A DNA stretch of 64,000 nucleotides from Caldisericota bacterium. Its GTDB lineage: Bacteria > Caldisericota > Caldisericia > UBA6126 > JAGPKI01. The notes beneath the pieces were generated by a model. It saw only the letters and a program-made list of their open reading frames with translations. It was not told where the DNA came from and made no database searches. A program made the translations under genes and the position numbers. Shown piece by piece: positions 20,986 to 60,957 of this stretch; the first letter of the stretch is position 1, and each line of letters begins with the position of its first letter. The DNA is taken from NCBI GenBank assembly GCA_052034135.1, contig JBPOJC010000013.1, positions 62,538 through 126,537 of the forward strand, in the 5' to 3' direction.

Positions 20986-22170
20986 ATGAAGCCTTTAACT
21001 GGAATTAAGGTACTTGATCTTACACGTGTTCTTGCGGGACCATTATGCACTGCGATCTTGGGAGACCTTGGTGCAGATGTAATAAAAATAGAAAATCCTA
21101 AAAAAGGTGATGAAACAAGAGGATGGGGTCCACCTTTTGTAAATGGCGAAAGCGCATATTATCTCTGCGCTAACAGGAATAAACGCTCTGTTACTTTAAA
21201 CTTTAAGTCAGAGGAAGCAAGTAAAATTATCAATAGTCTTGCAGCTAATTCAGATGTAGTAGTTCTAAACTATACTCCAGCTCGGATTGAAAAATTTAAC
21301 TTTTCATATGAAAGGTTTAAATCAATAAATGAAAAAATAATATGGGCAAACATTAGTGGGTTTGGTTTAACTGGACCCCGCAAAGATGAACCAGGCTATG
21401 ATATAATGATTCAGGGACAGAGCGGACTTATGAGTATAACAGGTGAAGAAAATGGAGAACCAATGAAAGTTGGAGTAGCAATTGTTGATGTAATCACTGC
21501 ATTATATAATGTAATATCAATAATTTCAGCTATTAGAAGAAGAGACATTGAAGGTTTCGGAGCCAAAATTGATAATTCACTTTTAGAATGTGCTACTTCA
21601 TCGCTTGTTAATGTAGCAAGCGGATACCTTATTAGTGGAGATCTGCCAAAAAGATATGGTAATGCCCATCCAAACATTGTCCCATATCAAGTTTTCAAAG
21701 CTCTTGATGGGTATTTCATTTTAGCTATCGGAAATGATGATCAATGGATGAGGCTTTGTAAGGTAATTGAAAGAGAAGACATATTGAGCGATAAAAGGTT
21801 TTCAACTAATACCGATAGAGTTAAAAACAGGGAAGATTTGATACCAGTATTAAGTCAGGAATTCCAAAAAAAGAATATGGACTATTGGCTATCTTCATTC
21901 AAACTTAATAATATTCCTTCTGGTCCTGTAAATACAATTGATAAAACTCTAAATGACCCACAAATTATTGATAGAGGATTGATTGCTTCCATTATGCACC
22001 CTCTATGCGGAGAAATAAAACTTTTGCGAAACCCAATTCATTTAGATAATTCAAATTTAGATATTGAAAGGCACCCTCCACTATTAGGAGAACATACAAA
22101 TGAAATTTTAAAAGAGTTAGGCTATACCGAAGCTGAAATAGAAGAACTCAAAGCAAAGAATGTGATATAA
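20986..22170 (+). CDS. Family III CoA-transferase (CaiB/BaiF/Frc-like).
   Basis: The N-terminal GIKVLDLTRVLAGP is typical. The conserved Asp in the GYD context supports family III CoA transferases. Confidence 0.75.
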   Translation: MKPLTGIKVLDLTRVLAGPLCTAILGDLGADVIKIENPKKGDETRGWGPPFVNGESAYYLCANRNKRSVTLNFKSEEASKIINSLAANSDVVVLNYTPARIEKFNFSYERFKSINEKIIWANISGFGLTGPRKDEPGYDIMIQGQSGLMSITGEENGEPMKVGVAIVDVITALYNVISIISAIRRRDIEGFGAKIDNSLLECATSSLVNVASGYLISGDLPKRYGNAHPNIVPYQVFKALDGYFILAIGNDDQWMRLCKVIEREDILSDKRFSTNTDRVKNREDLIPVLSQEFQKKNMDYWLSSFKLNNIPSGPVNTIDKTLNDPQIIDRGLIASIMHPLCGEIKLLRNPIHLDNSNLDIERHPPLLGEHTNEILKELGYTEAEIEELKAKNVI

Positions 22171-38234: not shown

Positions 38235-38277
38235 AAACTTTCTTATAATATTTATAAAATAAATAAAATACTGATAT

Positions 38278-38351
38278 GCGCCTATAGCTCAACTGGATAG
38301 AGCGACGGTCTACGGAACCGTAGGTTGCAGGTTCAAATCCTGTTAGGCGCA
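38278..38351 (+). tRNA. tRNA-Arg (anticodon ACG).
   Basis: It folds into a cloverleaf by hand: acceptor GCGCCTA/TAGGCGC, D arm GCTC..GAGC, anticodon stem ACGGT/ACCGT with loop CTACGGA, and T arm GCAGG-TTCAAAT-CCTGT. It is 74 nt including the discriminator A. Confidence 0.85.
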
Positions 38352-38361
38352 GACTTTATAA

Positions 38362-39171: not shown

Positions 39172-40776
39172 ATGATTTTGAAAAAAATTCTCATATTACT
39201 TTTAATAATTTATATTACAATTTTTAATATTCAATGTATAAACACCAATAAAGATGAAAAAATCACAGATCCGATAAAAATTGATACTGGTTTAATTTCA
39301 GGAATTTTACTCAATGAGAAAGAAAATATAAGGATTTATAGAGGAATACCTTATGCTTTCCCTCCTATCGGAGAAAATAGATGGAAACCACCTAAAGACC
39401 CAAAGCCTTGGGATGGAGTTAAAGAATGCATAAAATTTGGTCCAGTTTGTCCACAACCTAAATCTTCTTTAAGTACATTTGAAAGATCAAATAAATTTAG
39501 TGAAGATTGTTTATATTTAAATGTCTGGACACCAGCAAAATCTACTAATGATAAACTCCCTGTTATGGTTTGGATTCATGGTGGTATTTATTCAATTGGT
39601 TCTGGCTCTATGAGTATATACGATGGAGAGAATCTTTGCAAAAAGGGTGTTGTAGTAGTAACTATAAATTATAGACTCGGACCTTTTGGATTTTTTGCTC
39701 ATGAATCACTATCTGAGGAATCGGAACAAAAAGTTTCAGGTAATTATGGAATTCTGGATCAAATCTTTGCTTTAAAATGGATAAAAAAAAATATAAATGC
39801 ATTTGGAGGAAATCCAGAAAATATAACAATATTTGGTGAATCTGCAGGTGCTGGTAGTGTAACCTGTTTACTTGTTTCACCACTTTCAAAAGGATTATTC
39901 CATAAAGCTATAGCACAAAGTGGATCATATTATTTAAAGTGCAGAGATTTAAAAAAACATACTAACAATTTAGAACCAATGGAAAAAGTTGGTGAAAAAA
40001 TAACAAAGATGTTAAACTGTGATAAATCATTAGATGTTTTAAATTGTCTAAGATCTGTAACTGCAGAAAAATTATTAAATACAACTAATCCAGAATTGGA
40101 ATTATTTGGTAATGGAATAAAATTTGAGCCAGTAATTGATGGATATGTAATACCTGATATTCCTTCAGTTCTCTTTGAGAAAGGTTTATACAATAAAGTT
40201 CCATTTCTTACGGGAACAAATGCAGATGAAGGAACAATTCTTGCCCCAGACCTAGATGATATAAGTATTAATGGATATGAAGCATTTATTAAACTTACTT
40301 TTGGAGAGAAATATGAAGAAGATATTTTTAATTTCTTTCCAGCGAAAACAGACAAAGATGTGCCAAATGCATTGAATAAACTAATTACTGTCTCAGCCTT
40401 TGTTACTCCGGCAAGAGAAATAATAAGAGAAATATCCAAATCAGAAGATAATTGTTTTCTTTATCATTTTGTAAGAGTTCCGCTATTTTCAAAAAAAGCT
40501 AATCTTGGTTCATTTCATGGTCTTGAGATACCATATGTATTCCAAAATCTTGGTGAACCTTTTACTGAAAAAGACAAAGAGATCTCAAGAATAATGAGTA
40601 AATATTGGGTAAATTTTGCAAGAAGTGGAGATCCAAATTCTAATGAATTATTTTTATGGGAAAAATATAATGAAACAGGTGACAAAAACATAGAAATAGG
40701 TGAGGTAATTAAGATAAATGCTAACCTTTATAAAAATGAGTGCGATTTATTTGCTAAAATTTACAATGAATGGTAG
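39172..40776 (+). CDS. Secreted/lipoprotein type-B carboxylesterase (para-nitrobenzyl esterase-like alpha/beta hydrolase).
   Basis: There is a signal peptide with a lipobox-like CINT. The nucleophile elbow is GESAGAGS, an oxyanion HGG motif is present, and it is 534 aa. A strong RBS AAGGAGG lies upstream. Confidence 0.8.
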   Translation: MILKKILILLLIIYITIFNIQCINTNKDEKITDPIKIDTGLISGILLNEKENIRIYRGIPYAFPPIGENRWKPPKDPKPWDGVKECIKFGPVCPQPKSSLSTFERSNKFSEDCLYLNVWTPAKSTNDKLPVMVWIHGGIYSIGSGSMSIYDGENLCKKGVVVVTINYRLGPFGFFAHESLSEESEQKVSGNYGILDQIFALKWIKKNINAFGGNPENITIFGESAGAGSVTCLLVSPLSKGLFHKAIAQSGSYYLKCRDLKKHTNNLEPMEKVGEKITKMLNCDKSLDVLNCLRSVTAEKLLNTTNPELELFGNGIKFEPVIDGYVIPDIPSVLFEKGLYNKVPFLTGTNADEGTILAPDLDDISINGYEAFIKLTFGEKYEEDIFNFFPAKTDKDVPNALNKLITVSAFVTPAREIIREISKSEDNCFLYHFVRVPLFSKKANLGSFHGLEIPYVFQNLGEPFTEKDKEISRIMSKYWVNFARSGDPNSNELFLWEKYNETGDKNIEIGEVIKINANLYKNECDLFAKIYNEW

Positions 40777-42629: not shown

Positions 42630-43049
42630 TTAAAAAGCTAATAAGTTTAAACCTATATCTTCATTTCTTTCGCGATAGATTTCTCCATCAAAAATATCTA
42701 TTACTGCTTCCAATGTACCACTAATGATAGCGCTATTTAAGTGTCCTCCGATTACTTTGAATTCGTCATTTGCAAGGTTTACATGAAGGTGCAAGTAAAT
42801 TTCTCCATTCATTACAGACACATTCCCAAGTAAACTAGTAATTTCATGGTTACCCACTATTTTCTCAGTTTTGTAAACCTTATTTGATACATCGTAAACA
42901 CCAATTTCAGCATTATCTGTTGCACCAATACCCGAGATTATTCCTGCTTTAATATTATTGTCATTACAAATTTGTTTTATAGAGCTTACTATTTCTTCTC
43001 CACGATCAACTCTAAATATAATTTTGTTTGCTATTCTTTTATAAATCAT
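42630..43049 (-). CDS. DUF296 (PPC) domain protein. It is the last gene of the Hdr/Frd operon.
   Basis: It is ~139 aa with a beta-rich pattern and GG.H residues typical of the PPC domain. It lies 4 nt downstream of the malic enzyme gene on the same strand. Confidence 0.5.
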   Translation of the reverse strand: MIYKRIANKIIFRVDRGEEIVSSIKQICNDNNIKAGIISGIGATDNAEIGVYDVSNKVYKTEKIVGNHEITSLLGNVSVMNGEIYLHLHVNLANDEFKVIGGHLNSAIISGTLEAVIDIFDGEIYRERNEDIGLNLLAF

Positions 43050-43052
43050 TCC

Positions 43053-44507
43053 TTAAGAAACCTCTTTGATTGCGTACTCAAGAGCTTCATCAATTAAACT
43101 TTGTGGTGGTTTCTTTATAAAACCACTTTCCATAAGAAAGTTTGTTAAATTTCTTGAATAATCTATATCTTCTTTTGCCCTATTATATGCTTCATCCCAA
43201 CTCATATTAACCCTTGCAACTCCATCAGCTATAGCCTGAGTTGCTACATCTGCTGCTTCATTTGGAAATACTCCTGCTTCTTCCATTGTTGGAAGAATAT
43301 TATCTAGATTAATTCCACGTTTCTCTGCAAAATTAGCAAGTGATTTTGCAGCAGCTATTGCCATATTATCAGTTATTTTGCTTGCTCTAACAAGAAGAGC
43401 TCCCTTTAAAATTCCTGGGAAACCTAAAGAATTATTAACTTGATTAGGGAAATCGCCTCTTCCTGTACCAATTATATATGCTCCGGCTTTCTTTGCTTCA
43501 TATGGGTATATTTCTGGTACAGGGTTTGCACAGGCAAATATTATAGGTTTATCATTCATTGCTTTAATCCATTCTGGTTTAACAACTCCCGGTCCGGGCT
43601 TTGAAAGAGAAATCAAAACGTCAGCACCTTTAATTGCTTCTTCAATCGTTTCAATTTTATTAGGATTTGTATTTTTGCAAATATCCCATTTTCTATAAAA
43701 TCTTTTGTCTTCTTCTATGTCTCTCCTCCCGCTATGAAGAGCACCCTTTGAGTCAAACATAATAGCTTTTTTAGGATCAGCGCCAGCAGCCAGATTCAAT
43801 CTTAAGCATGTTGTGTTAGATGATCCTGCACCAAAATATACAATTCTTACATCTTCTAATTTTTTATTAGCGAGCTTTAAAGAATTAAGTAGTCCAGCTA
43901 AAGTGACACAAGCAGTACCCTGCTGATCGTCATGCCAAACTGGTATTTCGCATTCTTCTCTTAATACATCAAGCACTTTATAGCAGTTAGGTTGAGATAT
44001 ATCTTCAAGATTTACTGCTCCAAAACTATATTGAACTCTTTTAACAAATTCAATTATTTTGTCAGGATCATTCTCACCCTTTTCATTTTTACTATCAATA
44101 CATAAAGCAACTGCATCCACTCCACCAAGGTATTTCATAAGAAGTGCTTTACCTTCCATAACTCCAAGCCCACCAGGAGGAGTAACATCTCCATCTCCAA
44201 GCACTCGAGTTGAGTCACTCACTACAGCAACAAGATTTCCTCTGTTTGATAAAGTAAATGATTCAAGATTATTATCTCTTATTGTTGTAGAGACTATAGA
44301 TACTCCAGGGGTATACCAGACATTAAACCAGTTAAACCCATAAAGTGATACTTTTGGAATAGTTTGAACTTTACCACCATAAAATCGGTGGGTGCTATCC
44401 GCCAACTTCTTATAAAAAATAGTTTGAGCTTTTGCGATCTGTTCATCTGTAAAGTTATCAGGAAAACATTTGCTAAGATTGCTTAAATCCGGATTAATTT
44501 TTTCCAT
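43053..44507 (-). CDS. maeB: NAD(P)-dependent malic enzyme (oxaloacetate-decarboxylating malate dehydrogenase).
   Basis: There is a strong colinear match to bacterial malic enzymes: YTPGV, VVSDGT.VLGLG-like VVSDSTRVLGDGDV, VMEGKA, NLEDI..PNC, HDDQQGTA, and the C-terminal GTGRGDFPNQVNN. Confidence 0.85.
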   Translation of the reverse strand: MEKINPDLSNLSKCFPDNFTDEQIAKAQTIFYKKLADSTHRFYGGKVQTIPKVSLYGFNWFNVWYTPGVSIVSTTIRDNNLESFTLSNRGNLVAVVSDSTRVLGDGDVTPPGGLGVMEGKALLMKYLGGVDAVALCIDSKNEKGENDPDKIIEFVKRVQYSFGAVNLEDISQPNCYKVLDVLREECEIPVWHDDQQGTACVTLAGLLNSLKLANKKLEDVRIVYFGAGSSNTTCLRLNLAAGADPKKAIMFDSKGALHSGRRDIEEDKRFYRKWDICKNTNPNKIETIEEAIKGADVLISLSKPGPGVVKPEWIKAMNDKPIIFACANPVPEIYPYEAKKAGAYIIGTGRGDFPNQVNNSLGFPGILKGALLVRASKITDNMAIAAAKSLANFAEKRGINLDNILPTMEEAGVFPNEAADVATQAIADGVARVNMSWDEAYNRAKEDIDYSRNLTNFLMESGFIKKPPQSLIDEALEYAIKEVS

Positions 44508-44536
44508 TTTTACCTCCTAAAATATTTAAATAAAAA

Positions 44537-46225
44537 TTATAACCCTGCTGGCATAAATGGATCAAAATCTTTATTATGCTCTTTAAGCAGGTCGATATTT
44601 CTATATTCAGGTAATAAGATTGGAGAGATTTTTTTTGAATCTATGCTTTCTTTTTTAAGCTCCTCTTCATAAGCCCAAACGTGATCAATGTTCAGTTTGC
44701 CTTTTAAATCTGTCTCCTTCGCTAATCTTGCTGCTTCAATTCCTGCTCTTCTTCCAAAAACATTATAATCAAGAACAGAATTACCCATTAACCTATTTCT
44801 ACCATGAACTCCTCCAGAACATTCTCCAGCTGTTAAAAGATTAGGAAGATTAGTTCTTGTCCATTCATCAATTTCTATTCCGCCATTTTGATAATGAAGT
44901 GTAGGATAGACAAGCATAGGCTCTTTTCTAATATCTATACCAAACCTCTGATATTGCCTTACCATAGCAGGGAAAGCCTTTTCAAGCGTTCCAGGACCCC
45001 TCAAGATTTCAATTATAGGCGAATCAAGCCATATTCCAACATAGCCATCAGGTGTAACTATACCCTTTCCGTCACTACACTCTTTAATAAATGCCGAGGA
45101 TTCAACATCTCTTGGCTCTAAAGGAAATACAAACAATTCTCCATCCTTATTAAGTGGTTGGCCACCAAAACTACGTATTTTTTCCGTTACCAAAAAGCCT
45201 AAAATTTGCTTAGGGTAAATTGAACCTGTCGGATGATACTGAACTGAATCCATATAAATTATTTTGGCTCCTGCTCTATAAGCCATTACCACACCATCCA
45301 TTGTAGCTCCGTAATGATTTGTAGTTTGATATCCTTTAATGTGCAATCTCCCAAAGCCACCCGTTGTCATAATGGTAACTTTTGCTTTTACCACTGTATA
45401 TTCACCAGTTTCCATATTAAACAATATTGCACCAGCTATTTTACCTTCATCATCTTTTATTAGTTCCACGGCAGGTGAATATTCCAAAATTTCTATTCCT
45501 TCAGGATGATTTCTCACTTCATCTCTAAGAACTCGCATTATTTCTGCGCCAGTATAATCTTTACAACAGAGCATTCTCCTCCTTGAAGCACCACCACCTG
45601 AATCTGTTTGGGGATTTCCATCAGGCAATTTATCCCACATAACCCCAAGGTCCTCGAGAAACTTTACAATAAATGGGGCTTCTTTTGTTAATGCTTTTAC
45701 AAGTTCTGGCTTATTGTCAAAGTGACCGCCTCCAATGGCATCAAGATAATGTATTAACGGAGAATCAGAAGGATTAATAGCTGCCTGCATTCCTCCTTGA
45801 GACATCATGGAGTTAGAATCTCCTATACGTAATTTATTAGAAATAATAACCTTAGCACCATTTTTATAAGCCCACAAGGCTGCCTGACAACCTGCGCCAC
45901 CACCACCTATTACTAAAACATCTGTTTCATAATCTACTGGATCAATAGAAAAATTGCGCGGCAATCTCGTATGACTTTCAAGGATATCCACCACTTCCGA
46001 AGTTAAATTTTCCCCCTTATTAGGACCAATTCTTATTATTTTTCTTGCATCTGGACTATAATCTGGGTGATAAGTTGAAAGAACCTTTTCCCTCTCCTCA
46101 GCACTCATAGGTTTTAAAAAGTTTTGTAAGCCCTTTTTAGCATATTCTACCCTCTTGGGGCGAGTTTCTTCAACTTTTTTTAATGATTCAAGCATATAAT
46201 CCGGGTATCCCACTTTTTCCTCCAT
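44537..46225 (-). CDS. Soluble fumarate reductase/succinate dehydrogenase flavoprotein-like subunit (TfrA/FrdA-like) with a ~95-aa N-terminal extension.
   Basis: It has the FAD motif DVLVIGGGGAGCQAA and the SdhA-like core GGG.SRRRMLCCKDYTG.EIM. The covalent-FAD His is replaced by Asn (DSNSMMSQGG), so FAD is predicted to be non-covalent, as in soluble Frd and TfrA. Confidence 0.75.
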   Translation of the reverse strand: MEEKVGYPDYMLESLKKVEETRPKRVEYAKKGLQNFLKPMSAEEREKVLSTYHPDYSPDARKIIRIGPNKGENLTSEVVDILESHTRLPRNFSIDPVDYETDVLVIGGGGAGCQAALWAYKNGAKVIISNKLRIGDSNSMMSQGGMQAAINPSDSPLIHYLDAIGGGHFDNKPELVKALTKEAPFIVKFLEDLGVMWDKLPDGNPQTDSGGGASRRRMLCCKDYTGAEIMRVLRDEVRNHPEGIEILEYSPAVELIKDDEGKIAGAILFNMETGEYTVVKAKVTIMTTGGFGRLHIKGYQTTNHYGATMDGVVMAYRAGAKIIYMDSVQYHPTGSIYPKQILGFLVTEKIRSFGGQPLNKDGELFVFPLEPRDVESSAFIKECSDGKGIVTPDGYVGIWLDSPIIEILRGPGTLEKAFPAMVRQYQRFGIDIRKEPMLVYPTLHYQNGGIEIDEWTRTNLPNLLTAGECSGGVHGRNRLMGNSVLDYNVFGRRAGIEAARLAKETDLKGKLNIDHVWAYEEELKKESIDSKKISPILLPEYRNIDLLKEHNKDFDPFMPAGL

Positions 46226-46921
46226 TTATGTTATATCAAAATTGAGATCTCTCTCAAAATATTTCTTCTTTAAATCCTCTTTGGGCATATTTGCTAATTC
46301 CTTATATCCCTCTTCGAATTTACCATCTTCTATCTCTTTAAGCCTTGTCTCAACAAATTTACCTTTTTTAGACAAATATTTCCCATAAATTCTTCTTGCA
46401 AGAAGTGCAACATTAAACTGTGTTATTTCTGCTGGACATCTTGCAGCACAAAGCCCACAAGCAAGGCAATCAAACGATAATTCAGAAACTTTTTCTATAT
46501 CTCCCTTTATTACTGCTTGAACATAATCCATTACTTGAATATCCTGCGGACAAATCTTTGTGCATGTATTACAAGAAAGACATTTAAAAGTTTCAGGATA
46601 ATATTCTAAAAAAACCTGAGGATCAGGCTCTAATTGGTCTAAGTTGTATATTGCTTTTGGATTTGGTACATAAGGTATCTGAACAATCTGCATATTTTCC
46701 TGCACTACTGTTTGGCATCCAAGTCCACCATGAAGTTTATAATCTTCAGGGAGCCTGTATATTGTAGCACATGCACCACAAAAACCTTCTCTGCATCCAA
46801 CTCCTTTCTTAAGTTTAAATCCTGCATATTCCATTGCCGTAATGATTGTTGAGCTTTCAGGAACATAATACTTTTTACTTAGAATGTAAATTGGTATTTT
46901 TTTTAAATTTATCTGTTCCAT
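46226..46921 (-). CDS. SdhB/FrdB-like iron-sulfur subunit (2Fe-2S plus 4Fe-4S/3Fe-4S).
   Basis: The N-terminal plant-type 2Fe-2S motif is CREGFCGAC...C. Two downstream cluster motifs are CLSCNTCTKICP and CLACGLCAARCP. Confidence 0.75.
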   Translation of the reverse strand: MEQINLKKIPIYILSKKYYVPESSTIITAMEYAGFKLKKGVGCREGFCGACATIYRLPEDYKLHGGLGCQTVVQENMQIVQIPYVPNPKAIYNLDQLEPDPQVFLEYYPETFKCLSCNTCTKICPQDIQVMDYVQAVIKGDIEKVSELSFDCLACGLCAARCPAEITQFNVALLARRIYGKYLSKKGKFVETRLKEIEDGKFEEGYKELANMPKEDLKKKYFERDLNFDIT

Positions 46922-47824
46922 TTAATTTGAAACTAACTCCTTTCTGTTTAATACTTTTTTGGGGTCGATATAATTTTGGTCAAATCCATATATCTCTTCG
47001 CCGAGATCAAATAAAAATGCCATTAATTGTGTAAAATAAAGAACTGGAATCGGTTCAAAGCCATGATGTAATTCAATAATATCTTTTTGCCTTCTATCAA
47101 GGTTAAACTGACAAAGCGGACAACTTGTAACAATGAGTTCAGCTCCACTTTTCTTTGCATTGTTTAAAATGTCATAGCTAAGTGAAGTTACAATCTCTTT
47201 ATCAGAAACAACCTGATAACTACCACAACATCTTGTCCTTAATGGATTATTAACGACAGTTACGGAAAGATTTGTTAATAAATTCTCCATAATCTTAGGA
47301 TCTTCTGGATCATCTATTCCAATCTCTTTTGGCCTTAAGAGAGTACAACCATAATAAGGAGAAACCTTTAGGTCTGGTAGAGGGTTTTTAATATTTTGCT
47401 GCAATTTTTCGGCTTCAATCTCTTTAAGCATTTCTAAAAAATGGACTACTTCCACATCCTGATAGTAATGCTCGATCTCTAAGTACATCACATCGTTAAT
47501 CTTTTCAAGGTCTTCTTTGTTCTTCCTCATTCTTAGATTTGACATCTTTAATGTATTAAAGCACATAGCACATAATGTAACCATTCTATATTCATTATCA
47601 ACGATTCCAGCCTTGTTCATTTCTTCTACCCGAATGAAATTTCTAATCGGTGCAAAATGCCTGATTAAATCATCCGAAGAAAGAGAAGGCACCGCTCCAC
47701 AGCAATTCCATCTTGGAATCTCTACAAATTCAATACCTAATATTTTAGCTACAGCGATAGAAGAAGTTTCAAAACTTTTTGCTTTTGTTTTTAAAGTACA
47801 CCCTGGATAATATGGTATTTTCAT
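46922..47824 (-). CDS. hdrB: HdrB-like / SdhE-like protein with two CCG domains.
   Basis: It has two Cys-rich CCG motifs (YYPGCTL...NCCGAVPS and YYGCTL...RCCGSYQ) plus CPLC. Its start and stop abut the neighbouring genes. Confidence 0.8.
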   Translation of the reverse strand: MKIPYYPGCTLKTKAKSFETSSIAVAKILGIEFVEIPRWNCCGAVPSLSSDDLIRHFAPIRNFIRVEEMNKAGIVDNEYRMVTLCAMCFNTLKMSNLRMRKNKEDLEKINDVMYLEIEHYYQDVEVVHFLEMLKEIEAEKLQQNIKNPLPDLKVSPYYGCTLLRPKEIGIDDPEDPKIMENLLTNLSVTVVNNPLRTRCCGSYQVVSDKEIVTSLSYDILNNAKKSGAELIVTSCPLCQFNLDRRQKDIIELHHGFEPIPVLYFTQLMAFLFDLGEEIYGFDQNYIDPKKVLNRKELVSN

Positions 47825-47839
47825 AAATCTCCCACTCCT

Positions 47840-48244
47840 TTAACTTGTAAACTTTCTAAAAGCTGCAACTACAGCAACTTGAGGTAAGATTTTCCTGTCT
47901 TTTTCATCAATGTTTTTGATATCTATTCTATCAATTGCCTTCCTTAACTTTATTTGCCTTAAAGCCTCTCCCACTTTTGCAACATCTATTCCTCTAGGAC
48001 ACCTTGTCGTACAGGTAAAGCAAGAAGCACAAATCCAGAAAGTCTTAGTGTCTAAGACCTCTTCATCTCCAAGCTCAACGAGTCTCATCATATTTGATGG
48101 TGTAATGTCCATTTCAGCCACGAGCGGACAACTGCCTGAGCAGGTTCCGCATTGCTCACATAGTGTTACAACTTCACCGCTTATTTCGTTAACCTTTTCT
48201 ATAAATTCTACGTTTTTGTCAGATAATATGAGTTTATTGGACAT
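47840..48244 (-). CDS. hdrC: HdrC-like 2x[4Fe-4S] ferredoxin subunit.
   Basis: There are two CxxCxxCxxxCP motifs (CEQCGTCSGSCP and CASCFTCTTRCP) in a 134-aa protein. Confidence 0.8.
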   Translation of the reverse strand: MSNKLILSDKNVEFIEKVNEISGEVVTLCEQCGTCSGSCPLVAEMDITPSNMMRLVELGDEEVLDTKTFWICASCFTCTTRCPRGIDVAKVGEALRQIKLRKAIDRIDIKNIDEKDRKILPQVAVVAAFRKFTS

Positions 48245-48245
48245 A

Positions 48246-50645
48246 TTAAGCTCCTATTCTCTCTGTAAATAATTCTTTTTCTGCAATCTCCCAGAGTCTC
48301 TCTCTTTTCTCTGTTGAAATGGGTTCTTCCTTTTTTAAAAACTTTGTAAGCTCAGTAATGTGTTTATAAAAGTCAGTTAATAGTGAAGCAAGTAATTCAG
48401 CAAATTTTAATCTTTCTGGAGATATACCTTCTTTATTAAGAATTTCTTTTACGAGAGAAACATTTGTTTTAATTTTATCAACAGATCCAGTATAAGGAGA
48501 CGCACGATCATCGCATTCACCTATAAAAATACCATCAGCACCAGACTTAAAAGCATATAAAATTAGCTTCGGCGTTATTCTACTTCCGCTTGGAACTCGT
48601 ATAATTCTTGTTTCAGCTGGATAAGAGAGTCTCGCAGTCCCTATGTTATCAGCAAGTCTATAGGTGCAGGTATTATCTGCAAAAACAAGGATTCTTATTT
48701 CACCTTCTTTTTTTGTTCTTAAAGCTTCATCTATTTGTTCCATTAATTGTTTATTAGTGTAGTATCGAAGGTCTAAAGCATCTTTTGGGCAATCCGCTAT
48801 ACACATACCGCAGCCCTTACATATAACTTCATTAATTTTAGCTTTTCCATTTTCAATCGAAATAGCTTTAAGTGGACAGCTATTTATGCATAACCCGCAT
48901 CCATCGCAAATATCATCATAAACAAAAGCGATAATTGGTTCTATTTCAAATACACTTTTATTCATAAGCCTCATTGCTCTTGAAGCAGAAGCACTCCCCT
49001 GAGCAACTGAATCAGGGATATCTTTAGGACCTTGAGCGCATCCTGCGATAAAAACACCATCGATAAGAGTGTCAACTGGTCTGAATTTAGGGTGAGCCTC
49101 TTGTAAGAAACCATCTGCACTTCTTGCAAGTTTAAGAATATCTGCAATTTTTTCACTTCCACTTGATGGAACAATGCCGGTTGACAAAACTACAAGGTCA
49201 AATTCTCCCTCTATCATCTTTCTACTTAAAGTATCTTCTGAAAGCAGATAAAGCTTTTTGGTTAAAGGGTCTTCTCGAATTTCTGCAACTCTACCACGAA
49301 TAAACTTTATTCCTTCGTTCTGAGCTCTCTTATAATACTCCTCAAAGCCTTTTCCATATGCACGTAAGTCTGTATAGAAAATATAAATGTCTCTTGATGG
49401 ATCAAGCCTTTTAAGTAATTGAGCAAGCTTTGTTGCATACATACAGCAAATTCTTGAGCAATTTTCTCTATCTATCTGCTCATCTCTTGAACCAACACAT
49501 TGTATAAAAGCAATTCTTTTCCCGATTGGCTTAAGTGGAGGACCGGAAGAACCAGTTGCAATAATCCTCTCAAGCTGAAGTGCAGTTAAAACATTGGAAT
49601 ATTTCCCAAAGCCATAAACCGGCTTTTTTTCAGGGTCAAATAATTCATAGCCTGTTGCTGTAATGATTGTATCAACATTAAAACTTATTAGTTCTTCTTT
49701 ATCATCAAAGTTTATTGCTCCCTGCGTACATAACTTTTCACATATACCGCAAATTTTGCCACCCTTGACAAGTCTTTTACAGTTTTTCTCATCAATTAAA
49801 TACTTTCTTGGTACTGCAACAGGATTTTGAACATATACTGCTTTTCTCAAAGATAGCCCTTCATTAAATTCATCTGGCACTTTAACAGGACATTTTTCAG
49901 CGCATATGCCGCAGGCAACACATTTGTCCATATCAATGTATCTTGGTTTCTTTCTGACGGTTACAGTAAAATTACCAAGATAACCTGTAATACTTTCTAT
50001 CTCGGAATAAGTCATGAGCTTTATATTGGGGTGCTCTGCACAATCAGCCAGTTTGGGACCTATGATACATGTAGCACAATCCTCTGTTGGGAATGTTTTT
50101 GATAGCTTTGCCATCTTTCCGCCAATTGCAGGTTCTTTCTCAACAAGGTAAACTTCAAAACCAGAATCACCTAAATCAAGGCTTGCTTGAACTCCAGTAA
50201 TTCCTCCGCCTATAACTAAAACTCGTTTCCCTATTGGTAATTTCTGCCTTTCAAGAGGAATATCCGATCTTACTTTAGCTATTGCCATATTAACAAGGTC
50301 TATTGCTTTGCTTGTAGCTGCGCCTTTACTGAAATGGCACCAGGAACATTGCTCTCTAATATTTGCCATTTCAAAGGTGTATGCATTTAATCCAGCTTTT
50401 TCAACTGTTTTCATAAATGTTTTTTCGTGAAAAAGAGGTGAACATGACGCAACAACTATATGATCAAGATTTTGCTCTTTAATATCATCAATAATGTATT
50501 TTTGACCCTCTTCTGAACACATGTGTTCGTTGTCTCTGACAAACACAACACCTTCTTTATCTTTTACACTTTCTGCAACTTTTTTAACATCAACAATATC
50601 AGAAATATTTCCGCCACAATGGCAGATATAAACGCCAATTCGCAT
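48246..50645 (-). CDS. hdrA: HdrA-like flavoprotein fused to a C-terminal MvhD-like domain (candidate electron-bifurcating subunit).
   Basis: The N-terminal Cys cluster is VYICHCGGNI and the FAD motif is VLVIGGGITGVQASLDLGDSGFEVYLVEKEP. There are several ferredoxin-type CxxCxxCxxxCP motifs. The C-terminal ~140 aa match MvhD (ILVFADNTC...GADGIFIGEC). It is 799 aa. Confidence 0.85.
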   Translation of the reverse strand: MRIGVYICHCGGNISDIVDVKKVAESVKDKEGVVFVRDNEHMCSEEGQKYIIDDIKEQNLDHIVVASCSPLFHEKTFMKTVEKAGLNAYTFEMANIREQCSWCHFSKGAATSKAIDLVNMAIAKVRSDIPLERQKLPIGKRVLVIGGGITGVQASLDLGDSGFEVYLVEKEPAIGGKMAKLSKTFPTEDCATCIIGPKLADCAEHPNIKLMTYSEIESITGYLGNFTVTVRKKPRYIDMDKCVACGICAEKCPVKVPDEFNEGLSLRKAVYVQNPVAVPRKYLIDEKNCKRLVKGGKICGICEKLCTQGAINFDDKEELISFNVDTIITATGYELFDPEKKPVYGFGKYSNVLTALQLERIIATGSSGPPLKPIGKRIAFIQCVGSRDEQIDRENCSRICCMYATKLAQLLKRLDPSRDIYIFYTDLRAYGKGFEEYYKRAQNEGIKFIRGRVAEIREDPLTKKLYLLSEDTLSRKMIEGEFDLVVLSTGIVPSSGSEKIADILKLARSADGFLQEAHPKFRPVDTLIDGVFIAGCAQGPKDIPDSVAQGSASASRAMRLMNKSVFEIEPIIAFVYDDICDGCGLCINSCPLKAISIENGKAKINEVICKGCGMCIADCPKDALDLRYYTNKQLMEQIDEALRTKKEGEIRILVFADNTCTYRLADNIGTARLSYPAETRIIRVPSGSRITPKLILYAFKSGADGIFIGECDDRASPYTGSVDKIKTNVSLVKEILNKEGISPERLKFAELLASLLTDFYKHITELTKFLKKEEPISTEKRERLWEIAEKELFTERIGA

Positions 50646-51211
50646 TAAACTTCCTCCAAAATTTGATACTTTTTTACACCTTCAGCATATAAATCTCTAC
50701 CAGTCGTATCTATGCCAACAATTACAGGAAAATCTTCTACATAAAATTCCATAATTGCTTCGGCTCCAAGATCCTCATAAGCGATAAGTTTGGCACTTTT
50801 AATTGCTTGAGCTAACAGCGCTCCAGCCCCACCTATGGCAATAAAATAAATTGCTTTGTTTTTTATGATAGAATCTATGACTTCTTTTTTTCTCTCACCT
50901 TTTCCAATCATACCTTTTAGCCCATTATCAAGAAGAATTGAAGTATAGGGATCCATACGAGAACTTGTTGTTGGTCCCGCAGAACCAACTGCCATTCCTG
51001 GCTTCGCAGGCGAAGGACCAACATAGTAAATAACTTGATTTTTTATGTCAAATGGAAGAGGTTTGTTAGATTTTACAAGTTCTACAAGTCTTTTGTGGGC
51101 TGCATCTCTTGCTGAATATATTTTTCCACTAAGTAGCACTTTATCGCCAATTTTTAAATTAACGATTTCATCCTCCACTAAGGGAGTATTTAACTTGATT
51201 TCATTTCCCAT
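50645..51211 (-). CDS. fumB: Class I fumarate hydratase (Fe-S hydro-lyase), beta subunit.
   Basis: The fumarase/tartrate-dehydratase beta-type domain is present (GKIYSARDAAHKRL, YYVGPSP, GKGER). Confidence 0.8.
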   Translation of the reverse strand: MGNEIKLNTPLVEDEIVNLKIGDKVLLSGKIYSARDAAHKRLVELVKSNKPLPFDIKNQVIYYVGPSPAKPGMAVGSAGPTTSSRMDPYTSILLDNGLKGMIGKGERKKEVIDSIIKNKAIYFIAIGGAGALLAQAIKSAKLIAYEDLGAEAIMEFYVEDFPVIVGIDTTGRDLYAEGVKKYQILEEV

Positions 51212-51230
51212 CTTTATTTAACTTCCCTTC

Positions 51231-52076
51231 TTATATAATTGCACTTTTATGTCTTGCAGCATGACATTGAATATTTACAGCAACTGGCATGCTTGCTATA
51301 TGACAGGGAAAAGTTAATATATTCACTGCTAAAGCAGTTGTCCTACCGCCAAGGCCCATTGGACCAATACCTAAATTGTTTATTTTATTAAGTAGTTCTT
51401 CCTCTACTGCTTTCCATATAGGATCAGGATTATCTTCATCCAAAGGTCTTAAAAGAGCTTTTTTCGAAAGTATTGCACATTGTTCGAAGTCTCCACCAAT
51501 GCCTACTCCAACAATTATCGGTGGACATGGATTACCTCCGGCTCTTTTCACTCTATCAACAACAAATTTCTTGATACCTTCAATACCATCTGCTGCTGTC
51601 ATCATTTTTACTTCACTCATATTTTCTGAGCCGCCACCCTTAGGGGCAAAATCTATTTTTATTTTTTCACCTGGAACAATTGTGGTATGTATTATAGCAG
51701 GAGTATTGTCCTTTGTATTTTTACGCTCAATCACTGGATCATCAACTAATGATTTCCTTAAATATCCCTCAGTGTAACCGAGCCTAACTCCTTCATTTAT
51801 CGCACTATAAAAATCTCCACCAACAATGTGAACATCTTGTCCAAGTTCAATAAAAAATAGAGCTACTCCAGTATCCTGACACATAGGTATTTGTAATTCG
51901 CTAGCAAGTTCATCATTTTTAATAATTTGAGAAAGTATTTCTTTGCCAACAGGAGACTCTTCTTTTTCCATAAATTCTCTAAGTTTTTTCATTAGATCAT
52001 CGTTTACATAGTAATTTGCATCAATGCAAAGCTTTTTTATAACAGGAATAATTTGAGAAACATCTATCTCTCTCAA
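51231..52076 (-). CDS. fumA: Class I fumarate hydratase (Fe-S hydro-lyase), alpha subunit.
   Basis: It has MCQDTG near the N-terminus and the catalytic Cys ligands. It pairs with the beta subunit immediately downstream. Confidence 0.8.
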   Translation of the reverse strand: MREIDVSQIIPVIKKLCIDANYYVNDDLMKKLREFMEKEESPVGKEILSQIIKNDELASELQIPMCQDTGVALFFIELGQDVHIVGGDFYSAINEGVRLGYTEGYLRKSLVDDPVIERKNTKDNTPAIIHTTIVPGEKIKIDFAPKGGGSENMSEVKMMTAADGIEGIKKFVVDRVKRAGGNPCPPIIVGVGIGGDFEQCAILSKKALLRPLDEDNPDPIWKAVEEELLNKINNLGIGPMGLGGRTTALAVNILTFPCHIASMPVAVNIQCHAARHKSAII

Positions 52077-52088
52077 TTTAGCACCCCT

Positions 52089-52511
52089 TTATTGCTTATG
52101 TTTTTCAATTTCTTCTTTTTGCCACTCTATTGCAGCTTCACCTTTATAAAGATTACCAATTTCTTCTTCTAAATTTGAAACTTCAATTTTAAAAAGCCAC
52201 CCTTTTCCGTATGGATCTTGATTTGGAAAAGTCGGATCATCACTAATGTCTGGATTTACTTCTTTTATAGTTCCAGATAGAGGTGCGTAAATTTTACCGA
52301 CCCATTTACCGGTTTCGACTGTTCCAACAACATCGTCTGCACCTACTTCATCGCCTTCTACGGGCAATTCGATATATGAAATTTCACCTGCAAGTTTTTG
52401 ATAGAAATCTGTAACTCCTACTGTAGCAATGTTACCTTCAAGCTTTACCCACATATGCTCTTTATGATAATAAAGATCATCTGGTAGAAGATACCCTAAA
52501 ACATCACTCAT
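52089..52511 (-). CDS. gcvH: Glycine-cleavage-H-like lipoyl-carrier protein. It is the first gene of the Hdr/Frd operon.
   Basis: The GcvH fold motifs are H.W.K.EG, VG.TDFAQ-like GVTDFYQ, and the lipoyl-Lys box VETGK...IYAPLSGTI, which aligns to VESVKAASDLYAPVSG. Confidence 0.8.
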   Translation of the reverse strand: MSDVLGYLLPDDLYYHKEHMWVKLEGNIATVGVTDFYQKLAGEISYIELPVEGDEVGADDVVGTVETGKWVGKIYAPLSGTIKEVNPDISDDPTFPNQDPYGKGWLFKIEVSNLEEEIGNLYKGEAAIEWQKEEIEKHKQ

Positions 52512-60883: not shown

Positions 60884-60957
60884 GCGCCTGTAGCTCAGTT
60901 GGATAGAGCATCTGCCTTCTAAGCAGGTGGCCGTGGGTTCGAGTCCCGCCAGGCGCA
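60884..60957 (+). tRNA. tRNA-Arg (anticodon TCT).
   Basis: It folds into a cloverleaf by hand: acceptor GCGCCTG/CAGGCGC, D arm GCTC..GAGC, anticodon stem TCTGC/GCAGG with loop CTTCTAA, and T arm GTGGG-TTCGAGT-CCCGC. It is 74 nt. Confidence 0.85.

Follow-up and report, generated by a model that had tools for sequence, protein, structure and literature searches.

Introduction

Fumarate reductases coupled to modules of the heterodisulfide reductase (Hdr) kind have been proposed from bacterial genomes, and a locus that can be set beside them is analysed here. It lies on the minus strand, at 42630-52511, of a 64,000-nucleotide stretch (the window) from a Caldisericota bacterium (GenBank assembly GCA_052034135.1, contig JBPOJC010000013.1, positions 62,538 to 126,537), where genes for a fumarate-reductase-type flavoprotein (FrdA) and its iron-sulfur partner (FrdB) directly follow genes for HdrA (fused to MvhD), HdrC and HdrB. 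With somewhat better than even confidence, the system is read as a flavin-based electron-bifurcating fumarate reductase in which FrdAB would be the high-potential end of an HdrA-MvhD/HdrC/HdrB machine. It constitutes a well-supported genomic prediction of an already hypothesised enzyme type, to which a lipoyl protein encoded in the same operon adds a testable lead.

Among the described systems closest to this locus is the soluble TfrAB of Methanothermobacter (NCBIfam models NF004900/NF004898), in which iron-sulfur (FeS) and CCG modules feed a flavoprotein. In the MvhADG-HdrABC complex of methanogens (Protein Data Bank (PDB) entries 5odc, 8rvu and 9sfi), the acceptor at HdrB is the heterodisulfide of coenzyme M and coenzyme B (CoM-S-S-CoB), and bacteria are not known to make either coenzyme. 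The MetFV-HdrABC-MvhD methylene-tetrahydrofolate reductase of Moorella thermoacetica follows the same logic, with a bacterial HdrABC-MvhD core joined to a non-thiol reductase module; this module differs from FrdAB, and bifurcation with physiological partners is not established for the enzyme. Separate genes for a flavoprotein, an FeS protein and a two-CCG protein are found in the type E succinate dehydrogenases and related methylmenaquinol:fumarate reductases (SdhABEF/MfrABE), which are membrane- and quinone-associated and have neither HdrA nor HdrC. Apart from these, the genes of the sHdr-LbpA system of sulfur oxidation, which contains a small sHdrA, specify an Hdr-like complex together with a lipoate-binding protein resembling GcvH and a lipoate-protein ligase dedicated to it (Cao et al., 2018; PMC6067878).

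The kind of enzyme considered here has already been proposed from genomes, and in the literature it is a genome-based proposal only. Rubin-Blum et al. 2019 (PMC6315080) reported that in Thioflavicoccus mobilis and tubeworm symbionts the genes korABCD and 'tfrAB' are scattered among those of flxABCD-hdrABC, and proposed a complex bifurcating to 2-oxoglutarate:ferredoxin oxidoreductase and fumarate reductase. A 'succinate operon' of Pseudoclostridium thermosuccinogenes is presented in a preprint by Koendjbiharie & van Kranenburg (2019) and in PMC7282089, which cites it, with the proposal that bifurcation couples fumarate reduction to ferredoxin reduction. SdhA, HdrA2B2C2 and GcvH were found together in Culexarchaeia by Kohtz et al. 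2022 (PMC9723716), who speculated that GcvH serves as a disulfide carrier, while a 2025 survey of Cloacimonadota lists Mvh-Hdr with the acceptor unnamed.

Organisation of the locus and comparison with described systems

Gene assignments were made by Pfam and NCBIfam model searches of the open reading frames (ORFs) of the window. Ten co-oriented, tightly packed ORFs make up the operon, in the order (5' to 3' on the minus strand) gcvH-like, fumA, fumB, hdrA-mvhD, hdrC, hdrB, frdB, frdA, malic enzyme gene and a gene for a PCC-domain protein. Intergenic gaps from gcvH to frdA measure 0-19 nt (12 nt between gcvH and fumA), 29 nt separate frdA from the malic enzyme gene, and at both the hdrB/frdB and the frdB/frdA junction a TAA stop codon is directly followed by an ATG. 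A scan of the operon for promoters and terminators returned sites no commoner than in shuffled sequence. A syntenic contig (L001), 96% identical, points to a Caldisericia bacterium from a sludge digester. The initial annotation, whose interval (44537-47824) spans just hdrB, frdB and frdA, had correctly described separate FrdB-like and HdrB-like ORFs sharing a stop/start junction. It missed the defining context, namely HdrC, HdrA-MvhD, FumAB and GcvH upstream and malic enzyme downstream, as well as the absence of a C-terminal helical domain from FrdA; its observation is partly confirmed and its interpretation partly supported.

Compared with TfrAB, the locus is alike in that TfrA gives the best curated flavoprotein score, in that the flavinylation His is also absent from a TfrA protein (P0182), and in that FeS and CCG modules would, as predicted from the genes, feed a soluble flavoprotein. 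It differs in that FrdA has an N-terminal arm absent from TfrA and is without the TfrA C-terminal helical domain, in that the FeS and CCG parts are separate genes, and in the presence of HdrA-MvhD and HdrC. When compared with the published descriptions of the Flx-Hdr 'TfrAB' clusters, the window likewise has the two fumarate reductase genes next to hdrABC and in the same orientation; fumarate hydratase is shared with the P. thermosuccinogenes operon, korABCD occurs in the clusters of the reductive tricarboxylic acid (rTCA) cycle, and relatives of the locus in Aminicenantes have the interspersed Kor/Flx/Hdr/FrdBA layout as published. Unlike these clusters, the window has neither FlxABCD nor Kor, its MvhD is fused to HdrA, and gcvH-like and malic enzyme genes are added.

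Similarly, HdrA, HdrB, HdrC and an MvhD domain with complete cofactor ligands are shared with the MvhADG-HdrABC complexes, and three relatives of the locus (L013, L014, L032) have MvhAG-type NiFe hydrogenase genes adjoining the cluster. The predicted acceptor module of the window is, however, FrdAB with fumarate rather than HdrB with CoM-S-S-CoB, its MvhD is fused to HdrA (HdrA2 type), and the operon contains no hydrogenase. Common ground with the type E enzymes is found in the separate genes for flavoprotein, FeS protein and two-CCG protein, and in the four Cys in each [4Fe-4S] motif of FrdB. The sHdr-LbpA system shares the GcvH-like protein encoded with Hdr subunits, whereas the window has methanogen-type HdrABC with a full-size HdrA in a context of anaerobic carbon metabolism. 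The window variant is one without Flx, with MvhD fused to HdrA, and with lipoyl protein, fumarase and malic enzyme in one operon.

The FrdA flavoprotein

FrdA (44537-46225, minus strand; 562 aa) has the flavin adenine dinucleotide (FAD) fold with its GxGxxG motif, the capping domain and the dicarboxylate site of the Sdh/Frd/NadB superfamily, and matches PF00890 (FAD_binding_2) over residues 102-484 (E 8e-70). The full-length AlphaFold2 (AF2) model has a mean predicted local distance difference test (pLDDT) value of 81.5 and a predicted template modelling (pTM) score of 0.86, and its closest PDB folds are E. coli FrdA (1kf6_A) and Mycobacterium smegmatis Sdh1 SdhA (7d6v_A). Equivalents of E. 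coli FrdA H232, T244, E245, R287, H355 and R390, which comprise the residues of that enzyme for dicarboxylate binding and proton transfer, are all present and family-invariant, and the dicarboxylate-site motifs read QYHPTG, VTEK, EPRD, TLHYQNGG and GRNRL.

The flavin site is of a different kind from that of canonical complex II. Residues 136-145 read DSNSMMSQGG, and Asn138 (codon 45812-45814, minus strand) lies opposite the flavinylated His in HMMER alignments to M. smegmatis Sdh1 SdhA (GKAHTVMAEGG) and E. coli FrdA (MRSHTVAAQGG, E49Q entry), as the initial annotation had claimed. Asn138 is invariant across 37 family members aligned with MAFFT. In a wider 16-sequence MAFFT alignment, distant relatives of the clade (P0121-P0143) also have Asn at this site, while the Sdh-type representatives P0165, P0179, P0170 and P0157 have His and P0182, which passes the NCBIfam TfrA cutoff (765 vs 718 bits), has Gly/Cys. 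A His brought into register by proper gapping was looked for as well, and three independent alignments (phmmer to PDB; MAFFT, n=37; MAFFT, n=16) place Asn, never His, at the site. FAD binding is accordingly predicted to be non-covalent, and the analysis supports the assignment of FrdA to the fumarate-reductase type of flavoprotein and the absence, shared with TfrA, of its flavinylation His.

The best curated family for FrdA is TfrA NF004900 (338.5 bits against a cutoff of 718, over model positions 6-426 of 546); the Sdh/Frd models NF005866 (277 bits, cutoff 819) and TIGR01812 (274 bits, cutoff 567) likewise score far under their cutoffs. The C-terminal helical domain (PF02910, with its ESRGAH motif) that is common to SdhA, FrdA and TfrA is absent from this FrdA family, in which a tail of about 60 aa is found instead. 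Sequence comparison thus places FrdA in the Sdh/Frd superfamily, in a distinct clade closest to TfrA but outside it. A TfrA equivalog was rejected on the score of 338.5 vs 718 bits and the missing C-terminal domain; canonical complex II SdhA/FrdA was rejected on Asn138 in place of His, the missing PF02910 domain and scores below the curated cutoffs. Of the earlier label 'soluble/Tfr-type', the part concerning the absent flavinylation His holds, as in TfrA P0182, whereas equivalence to TfrA does not. Databases label the family just 'FAD-binding protein' or 'SdhA/FrdA'.

The near-equal scores of neighbouring families raise the question whether FrdA is an L-aspartate oxidase (NadB) or an enzyme like adenosine 5'-phosphosulfate (APS) or 3'-phosphoadenosine 5'-phosphosulfate (PAPS) reductase (AprA), an assignment that is hardly credible. 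NadB models do score near the Sdh/Frd models (TIGR00551, 257 vs 274 bits), the NadB fold (1knp) is a good structural match, and the window FrdA has Glu at the position of NadB Glu121. Nevertheless, every NadB score is under its cutoff (452.75 bits for TIGR00551), many members of the family have V, I or A in place of the Glu121 equivalent, and M. smegmatis Sdh1 also has Glu there. Furthermore, FrdA is always paired with an FeS subunit and stands in the context of fumarase and malic enzyme, and no nadA/nadC or sat/aprB family member was found among the window ORFs scanned. AprA and PAPS reductase match only the Rossmann motif (about 28 bits, residues 99-144). Both assignments were rejected on scores, context and residue conservation.

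About 100 residues precede the GxGxxG motif (about 90-95 precede the Rossmann fold), forming an N-terminal arm (residues 1-100; 45926-46225, minus strand) that had been described as a unique extension of about 95 aa with no counterpart in SdhA. The arm is indeed present and has no match to any Pfam family; its profile reaches a best E of 0.27 against PDB sequences, and its fold finds no match below E = 3 in the PDB (Foldseek). It is not unique, being shared by the 120 homologues listed (63-96% identity, mostly 555-569 aa, query coverage 91-99%) in a family with 327 relatives, and 19 of its positions, between residues 7 and 98, are invariant. The structure prediction suggested earlier gives, in the full-length AF2 model, an arm with a pLDDT of about 90 that comprises helices at 9-31 and 42-52, a small beta pair and a helix at 76-82. 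Since the arm folded alone attains a pTM of only 0.32, it behaves in these models as an element that packs on the core or a partner, and not as an autonomous domain. A natural fusion in the representative library (P0122, 727 aa) joins the C-terminus of an FrdB, 37% identical to the window FrdB over 209 aa, to the FrdA arm, which is consistent with a position of the arm near FrdB.

The start codon of frdA probably needs revision as well. GGAGG stands 5 nt ahead of a GTG at 46213, four codons inside the annotated ATG, and the two nearest homologues, with 96% and 87% identity, have 558 aa and begin MGYP. Because of this spacing and the length of these homologues, the annotated ATG is probably wrong and GTG 46213 the true start, which would give FrdA 558 aa and the arm about 91 aa. 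Two proteins with 39-45% identity (P0123, P0126), hosted by marine Gammaproteobacteria metagenome-assembled genomes and Prochlorococcus sp. MIT 1201, have a shorter arm and likewise lack the C-terminal domain, with Asn in the place of the His.

The iron-sulfur and Hdr subunits

FrdB (46226-46921, minus strand; 231 aa), assigned from Pfam matches and conserved Cys, has ligands for one [2Fe-2S] cluster (C43/48/51/69) and two [4Fe-4S] clusters (C114/117/120/124 and C152/155/158/162). These 12 Cys (4+4+4) are kept in at least 97% of 68 homologues, while similarity to SdhB is weak (E 0.0025). HdrB (46922-47824, minus strand; 300 aa) matches PF02754 twice, for two CCG domains of the kind that hold non-cubane [4Fe-4S] clusters; both CCG motifs are complete, and ten Cys are kept in at least 92% of 51 sequences. 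The cluster motifs first attributed to the two proteins are borne out. Residues 1-293 of HdrB align end to end with methanogen HdrB (9sfi_C, E 8e-32).

The remaining Hdr subunits are encoded directly upstream. HdrC (47840-48244, minus strand; 134 aa; TIGR03290, E 6e-20) has motifs for two [4Fe-4S] clusters, and its eight Cys are kept in 25 of 25 sequences. HdrA (48246-50645, minus strand; 799 aa) is of HdrA2 type with a C-terminal MvhD: over residues 2-643 it matches the structurally characterised, bifurcating HdrA of methanogens (8rvu_a, 727 bits, E 2e-217), residues 647-775 correspond to MvhD (PF02662, FlpD, at residues 652-771), and the NCBIfam HdrA2 model is matched over its full length with 947 bits (cutoff 1100). 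The N-terminal Cys domain of HdrA, its TrxR-like FAD domain and two ferredoxin domains are all found, together with the two [4Fe-4S] motifs of HdrC and the two CCG motifs of HdrB, and HdrA-MvhD is the putative bifurcating FAD subunit. As the NCBIfam cutoffs are not reached (HdrC scores 72 against 160 bits), the Hdr subunits are homologues and not curated equivalogs.

TfrB was said to combine FeS and HdrB-like parts in one polypeptide, and the NCBIfam model NF004898 agrees, with an FrdB/HdrC-like part at about 125-222 and an HdrB-like part at 262-465; in its model architecture, TfrB is a fusion of FeS and CCG module types. The further suggestion that the window holds a split or pre-fusion TfrB is not sustained. 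Matches of the FrdB-like protein and HdrB to the TfrB model are weak and partial (31 and 48 bits, where the cutoff is 385). Because HdrB aligns end to end with methanogen HdrB and is encoded after hdrA-mvhD and hdrC, it is better taken for a member of a full set of HdrA, HdrC and HdrB than for one half of a TfrB that has been split. With HdrB in an HdrABC module, the functional reading is no longer that of a thiol:fumarate reductase but that of a fumarate reductase which is coupled to Hdr and probably bifurcating.

The CCG protein also bears on a non-bifurcating alternative, in which the enzyme would be a type-E-like succinate:quinone or methylmenaquinol:fumarate reductase with the CCG protein as its SdhE anchor, or a simple ferredoxin- or H2-dependent fumarate reductase with HdrA as electron entry only. 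The top NCBIfam match of the CCG protein is in fact SdhE of methylmenaquinol:fumarate reductase (155 bits, vs 143 bits for HdrB), and the second cluster motif of FrdB has four Cys, as in type E SdhB, which has no 3Fe-4S centre. Both scores are, however, far under their cutoffs (500 and 345 bits), and the protein matches methanogen HdrB throughout its length within an hdrA-hdrC-hdrB array. Moreover, the flavinylation His and the C-terminal domain are both retained in type E flavoproteins and in the aligned canonical Sdh-type representatives, whereas FrdA has neither. No SdhF-like or membrane subunit was found among the operon ORFs, and HdrA resembles the bifurcating type from end to end. On this evidence the non-bifurcating alternative is improbable.

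Related loci and their electron donors

A collection of species-representative genomes was searched for relatives of FrdA, and 80 related loci were compared. The search returned 327 stretches encoding a relative, from Caldisericota, WOR-3, Aminicenantes, Cloacimonadota and others. The frdB gene lies directly upstream of frdA in 75 of the 80 related loci by tblastn (adjacent in 63 of 76 by ORF calling), and of the 47 loci whose upstream flank measures 8 kb or more, 42 have same-strand Hdr genes.

Around this constant pair, three layouts recur. In Caldisericota the order is gcvH-[lplA]-fumAB-hdrA-hdrC-hdrB-frdBA-malic enzyme gene. Further genes often come after these, namely another hdrC2B2, one for an HdrA-like protein of 1470 aa that includes an NfnB/GltD-like domain, mvhD and flxCB; in L005 and L008 the NAD(P)H-type insertion is already present in the first HdrA. 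WOR-3 and allies have hdrC-hdrB-hdrA-[mvhD]-frdBA, accompanied by MvhAG-type NiFe hydrogenase genes (L013, L014, L032), by NuoEF-like genes (L016, L024, L031) or by the NfnB-like insertion (L010, L021). In Aminicenantes, the order is hdrCB-korDABG-hdrA-mvhD(flxD)-flxC-flxB-flxA-frdBA. A GltD/NfnB-like module (Fer4_20 + Pyr_redox_2) is inserted into, or added to, HdrA in variants of 1120-1470 aa, as in L005 (4209-7982), L008, L010 (1327-4689) and L012 (14609-19024), and from its domain content this module is a predicted built-in entry site for NAD(P)H. A constant reductase pair with an interchangeable donor is the signature of a modular Hdr-type bifurcating enzyme with fumarate as the exergonic acceptor.

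A contig binned as 'Bathyarchaeia archaeon' (L003, CAZJUU010000043) carries hdrC-hdrB-frdB-frdA genes 58-75% identical to those of Caldisericia, and is probably the result of a binning error or a recent transfer.

A proposed bifurcating fumarate reductase

In the proposed mechanism, a two-electron donor would reduce the FAD of HdrA, from which one electron would pass uphill to ferredoxin through the HdrA ferredoxin domains, and the other downhill through the two [4Fe-4S] clusters of HdrC, the non-cubane clusters of HdrB and the FrdB clusters to the FrdA FAD and fumarate. No donor is encoded in the operon itself; in relatives it would be NADH via FlxABCD, NAD(P)H via the NfnB/GltD-like insertion of HdrA, H2 via MvhAG, or NADH via NuoEF-like proteins. 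Fumarate would be supplied from malate or pyruvate by enzymes of the operon, forming a branch from malate/pyruvate to succinate. These are a class I (Fe-S) fumarate hydratase, with its alpha subunit FumA (51231-52076, minus strand; 281 aa; PF05681, E 6.5e-120; NF004885, 428 bits against a cutoff of 276) and beta subunit FumB (50645-51211, minus strand; 188 aa; PF05683, E 3e-63; NF005310, 279 bits against 238), and a malic enzyme (43053-44507, minus strand; 484 aa; PF00390 + PF03949) that is syntenic in the Caldisericota loci L001, L005, L008, L011 and L012.

The pairing of variable donors with a constant FrdAB speaks for a bifurcating enzyme, since this is the pattern expected when fumarate replaces the heterodisulfide as acceptor. 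The tight gene spacing, the match of HdrA to bifurcating HdrA, the complete cluster ligands of HdrB and HdrC, the 12 Cys of FrdB, the retained active site and Frd/Sdh fold of FrdA, the near-universal adjacency of frdB and frdA and their natural fusion also speak for it. Domain content, cofactor ligands, active-site residues and conserved synteny are directly observed, while complex formation, electron path, bifurcation and reaction direction are predicted from them.

As regards direction, mutagenesis of His44 in E. coli FrdA established that non-covalent FAD allows fumarate reduction but not succinate oxidation, and the reductive direction is preferred here because the flavinylation His is lost invariantly. 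The reverse process would be succinate oxidation with electron confurcation, in which succinate and reduced ferredoxin jointly reduce an acceptor of intermediate potential and fumarase and malic enzyme lead onward to pyruvate, as might happen when propionate or succinate is oxidised syntrophically. The two enzymes of the operon would suit such an oxidative route too, and homologues occur in Cloacimonadota, which are proposed syntrophic propionate oxidisers. Nevertheless, covalent FAD is what enables succinate oxidation, so the invariant loss of its His argues for fumarate reduction, and the clusters of Aminicenantes and the published gammaproteobacterial clusters embed a 2-oxoacid:ferredoxin oxidoreductase, a reductive TCA context. 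Operation in reverse is thus very improbable.

The potentials of fumarate (+33 mV) and NADH (-320 mV; PMC5861303) make bifurcation from NADH to fumarate thermodynamically favourable, fumarate being a far stronger acceptor than the methanogen heterodisulfide. Further support for the bifurcating enzyme is provided by the independent genome-based proposals, which describe the same Hdr-Frd coupling (PMC6315080; and PMC7282089, citing Koendjbiharie & van Kranenburg 2019). If the reading is right, fermenters and rTCA autotrophs would, with no need of quinones or membranes, convert the large energy drop from NADH or H2 to fumarate into reduced ferredoxin, which could drive H2 production or ion pumping (by Mbh or Rnf). 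Members of the family are widely distributed in Caldisericota, WOR-3, Aminicenantes and Cloacimonadota, uncultured phyla that are dominant in digesters and sediments, and variable donors around a constant FrdAB provide a clear, testable design rule.

Reduced ferredoxin may plausibly be consumed by a nearby Mbh-type hydrogenase. In the same genome type, genes for ferredoxin, the protease HycI and HypA are found some 10 kb beyond the left edge of the window (L091, 1-1346). In a related contig (L094, 600-10500) the same three genes form the end of a cluster for a group 4 [NiFe] hydrogenase of Mbh/Mrp type that includes antiporter-like subunits, and this hydrogenase lies, in a close relative, just upstream of the region syntenic with that left edge. 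As an electron donor this hydrogenase was rejected, being of Mbh type (group 4), not Mvh type, and a ferredoxin sink.

Several points weigh against a bifurcating enzyme. The literature searched contains no biochemical characterisation of any family member. All Hdr and Frd subunits score below the NCBIfam equivalog cutoffs, and 5 of the 47 loci with sufficient flank have FrdBA without nearby Hdr genes. A donor module is absent from the 64-kb window: tblastn with representatives of Flx, MvhAG, NiFe hydrogenase, NuoF, Kor, LplA and GcvT/P returned no match, and Pfam scans of the other large ORFs of the window returned housekeeping genes only. Lastly, an Hdr-associated lipoyl protein heads the operon, which hints that a thiol/disulfide couple may link the modules in place of direct transfer from HdrB to FrdB.

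The GcvH-like lipoyl protein

The first gene of the operon encodes a lipoyl carrier of the GcvH family (52089-52511, minus strand; 140 aa; PF01597, E 3e-38), with the lipoyl Lys in VETGKWVGK. Its score lies just above the NCBIfam GcvH cutoff (121.6 vs 115.85 bits), and E-T-[GA]-K-W occurs in all 120 of its top homologues (ETGKW in 119). The GcvH encoded in glycine-cleavage-like clusters near the Aminicenantes loci instead has ESVKAxSD and a higher GcvH-model score (168 vs 122 bits). The 'ETGKW' proteins thus appear, by motif and score, to form a distinct subfamily, of which the members (ETGKWxGK), found in Caldisericota, Altiarchaeales and other groups, share 59% identity or more.

Seven homologues on long contigs were sampled irrespective of context, and six of them adjoin CCG proteins, five of these being in Hdr-type modules. 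One, from Altiarchaeales, ends an sHdr-like hdrC1B1A-hyp-C2B2 cluster; two follow flxBA-hdrA-hdrC-hdrB-CMD-tusA-dsrE(x4)-dsrH; one follows hdrA'-mvhD-flxCBA-hdrA-hdrC-hdrB-CMD; one precedes lplA-lutA(CCG)-lutB-ldh2; one stands in a window-type operon with lplA; and the seventh has no CCG neighbour. A gene for lipoate-protein ligase follows the gcvH-like gene in L005, L008, L012 and L090. By these contexts, which agree with those of LbpA, the subfamily is classed as a predicted Hdr/CCG-associated lipoyl protein.

The association suggests a rival to direct electron transfer, tentative and rather unlikely, in which HdrB, FrdB and FrdA would form a split Tfr that oxidises the dihydrolipoyl GcvH-like protein and reduces fumarate. 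HdrA-MvhD/HdrC, or a second Flx-Hdr module encoded elsewhere, would re-reduce the lipoyl disulfide with concomitant reduction of ferredoxin, so that the lipoyl protein plays the role of CoM-S-S-CoB. The position of the gcvH-like gene at the head of the operon, with the ligase gene next in the four loci named, speaks for such a scheme, as do the distinctness of the subfamily from glycine-cleavage-linked GcvH and its proximity to Hdr/CCG modules in Altiarchaeales and in Flx-Hdr-TusA-DsrE and LutAB-like clusters. Further, Caldisericota relatives have a second HdrC2B2-HdrA'-MvhD-Flx module straight after the operon, TfrB fuses FeS and CCG modules, and similar ideas have been published (PMC6067878 for sHdr-LbpA; PMC9723716; PMC6315080, Supplemental Note 3). 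On the other hand, linkage of GcvH, Frd and Hdr is confined to loci of the Caldisericota type, the GcvH of Aminicenantes being canonical; the operon has a single HdrB, so that a diffusible or protein thiol intermediate is not required; and lipoylation of the GcvH-like protein and its binding by HdrB are predicted only.

Put more generally, the ETGKW protein may, with the same modest probability, be a protein-bound dithiol/disulfide substrate of HdrB in non-methanogens, in which case the present system would be a thiol:fumarate reductase that depends on a lipoyl protein and is connected to a bifurcating HdrA. This carrier would then also form a link among the CCG enzymes of Flx-Hdr, sHdr-like and LutAB-like type in anaerobic bacteria and archaea. 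The co-encoded lipoyl protein is a concrete candidate for what bacterial HdrB proteins reduce.

In Aminicenantes (L029, L038, L040, L045 and others), a conserved cluster of ORFs lies on the opposite strand, convergent, about 7-10 kb downstream of frdA, and consists of a canonical GcvH gene, one ORF for about 360 aa and two others for about 450-480 aa each. From sizes and order it is guessed to be gcvT-gcvH-gcvPA-gcvPB, only GcvH having been matched to a family model. This GcvH was not counted as an Frd-Hdr association, being of the canonical type in a divergent glycine-cleavage-like cluster, and the recurrent closeness of the cluster to the Frd loci may be coincidental.

Other features of the window

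The last gene of the strand encodes a PCC-domain protein (42630-43049, minus strand; 139 aa; PF03479, E 5e-33) that is conserved only in L001, and its tie to the Hdr-Frd system is uncertain. The window has a G+C content of about 30%, and an Rfam scan of it returned two tRNAs and no other RNA families; both are tRNA-Arg genes on the plus strand, at 38277-38352 (anticodon ACG) and 60884-60957 (anticodon TCT). A family III CoA-transferase (20986-22170, plus strand; PF02515, E 2e-118), encoded 22 kb from the operon on the other strand, could have succinate or another dicarboxylate as substrate. The lowest G+C content of the window (0.27) is that of a gene at 39172-40776 (plus strand) for a secreted-looking, 534-aa type-B carboxylesterase/lipase (PF00135, E 2e-133), a family known mainly from eukaryotes.

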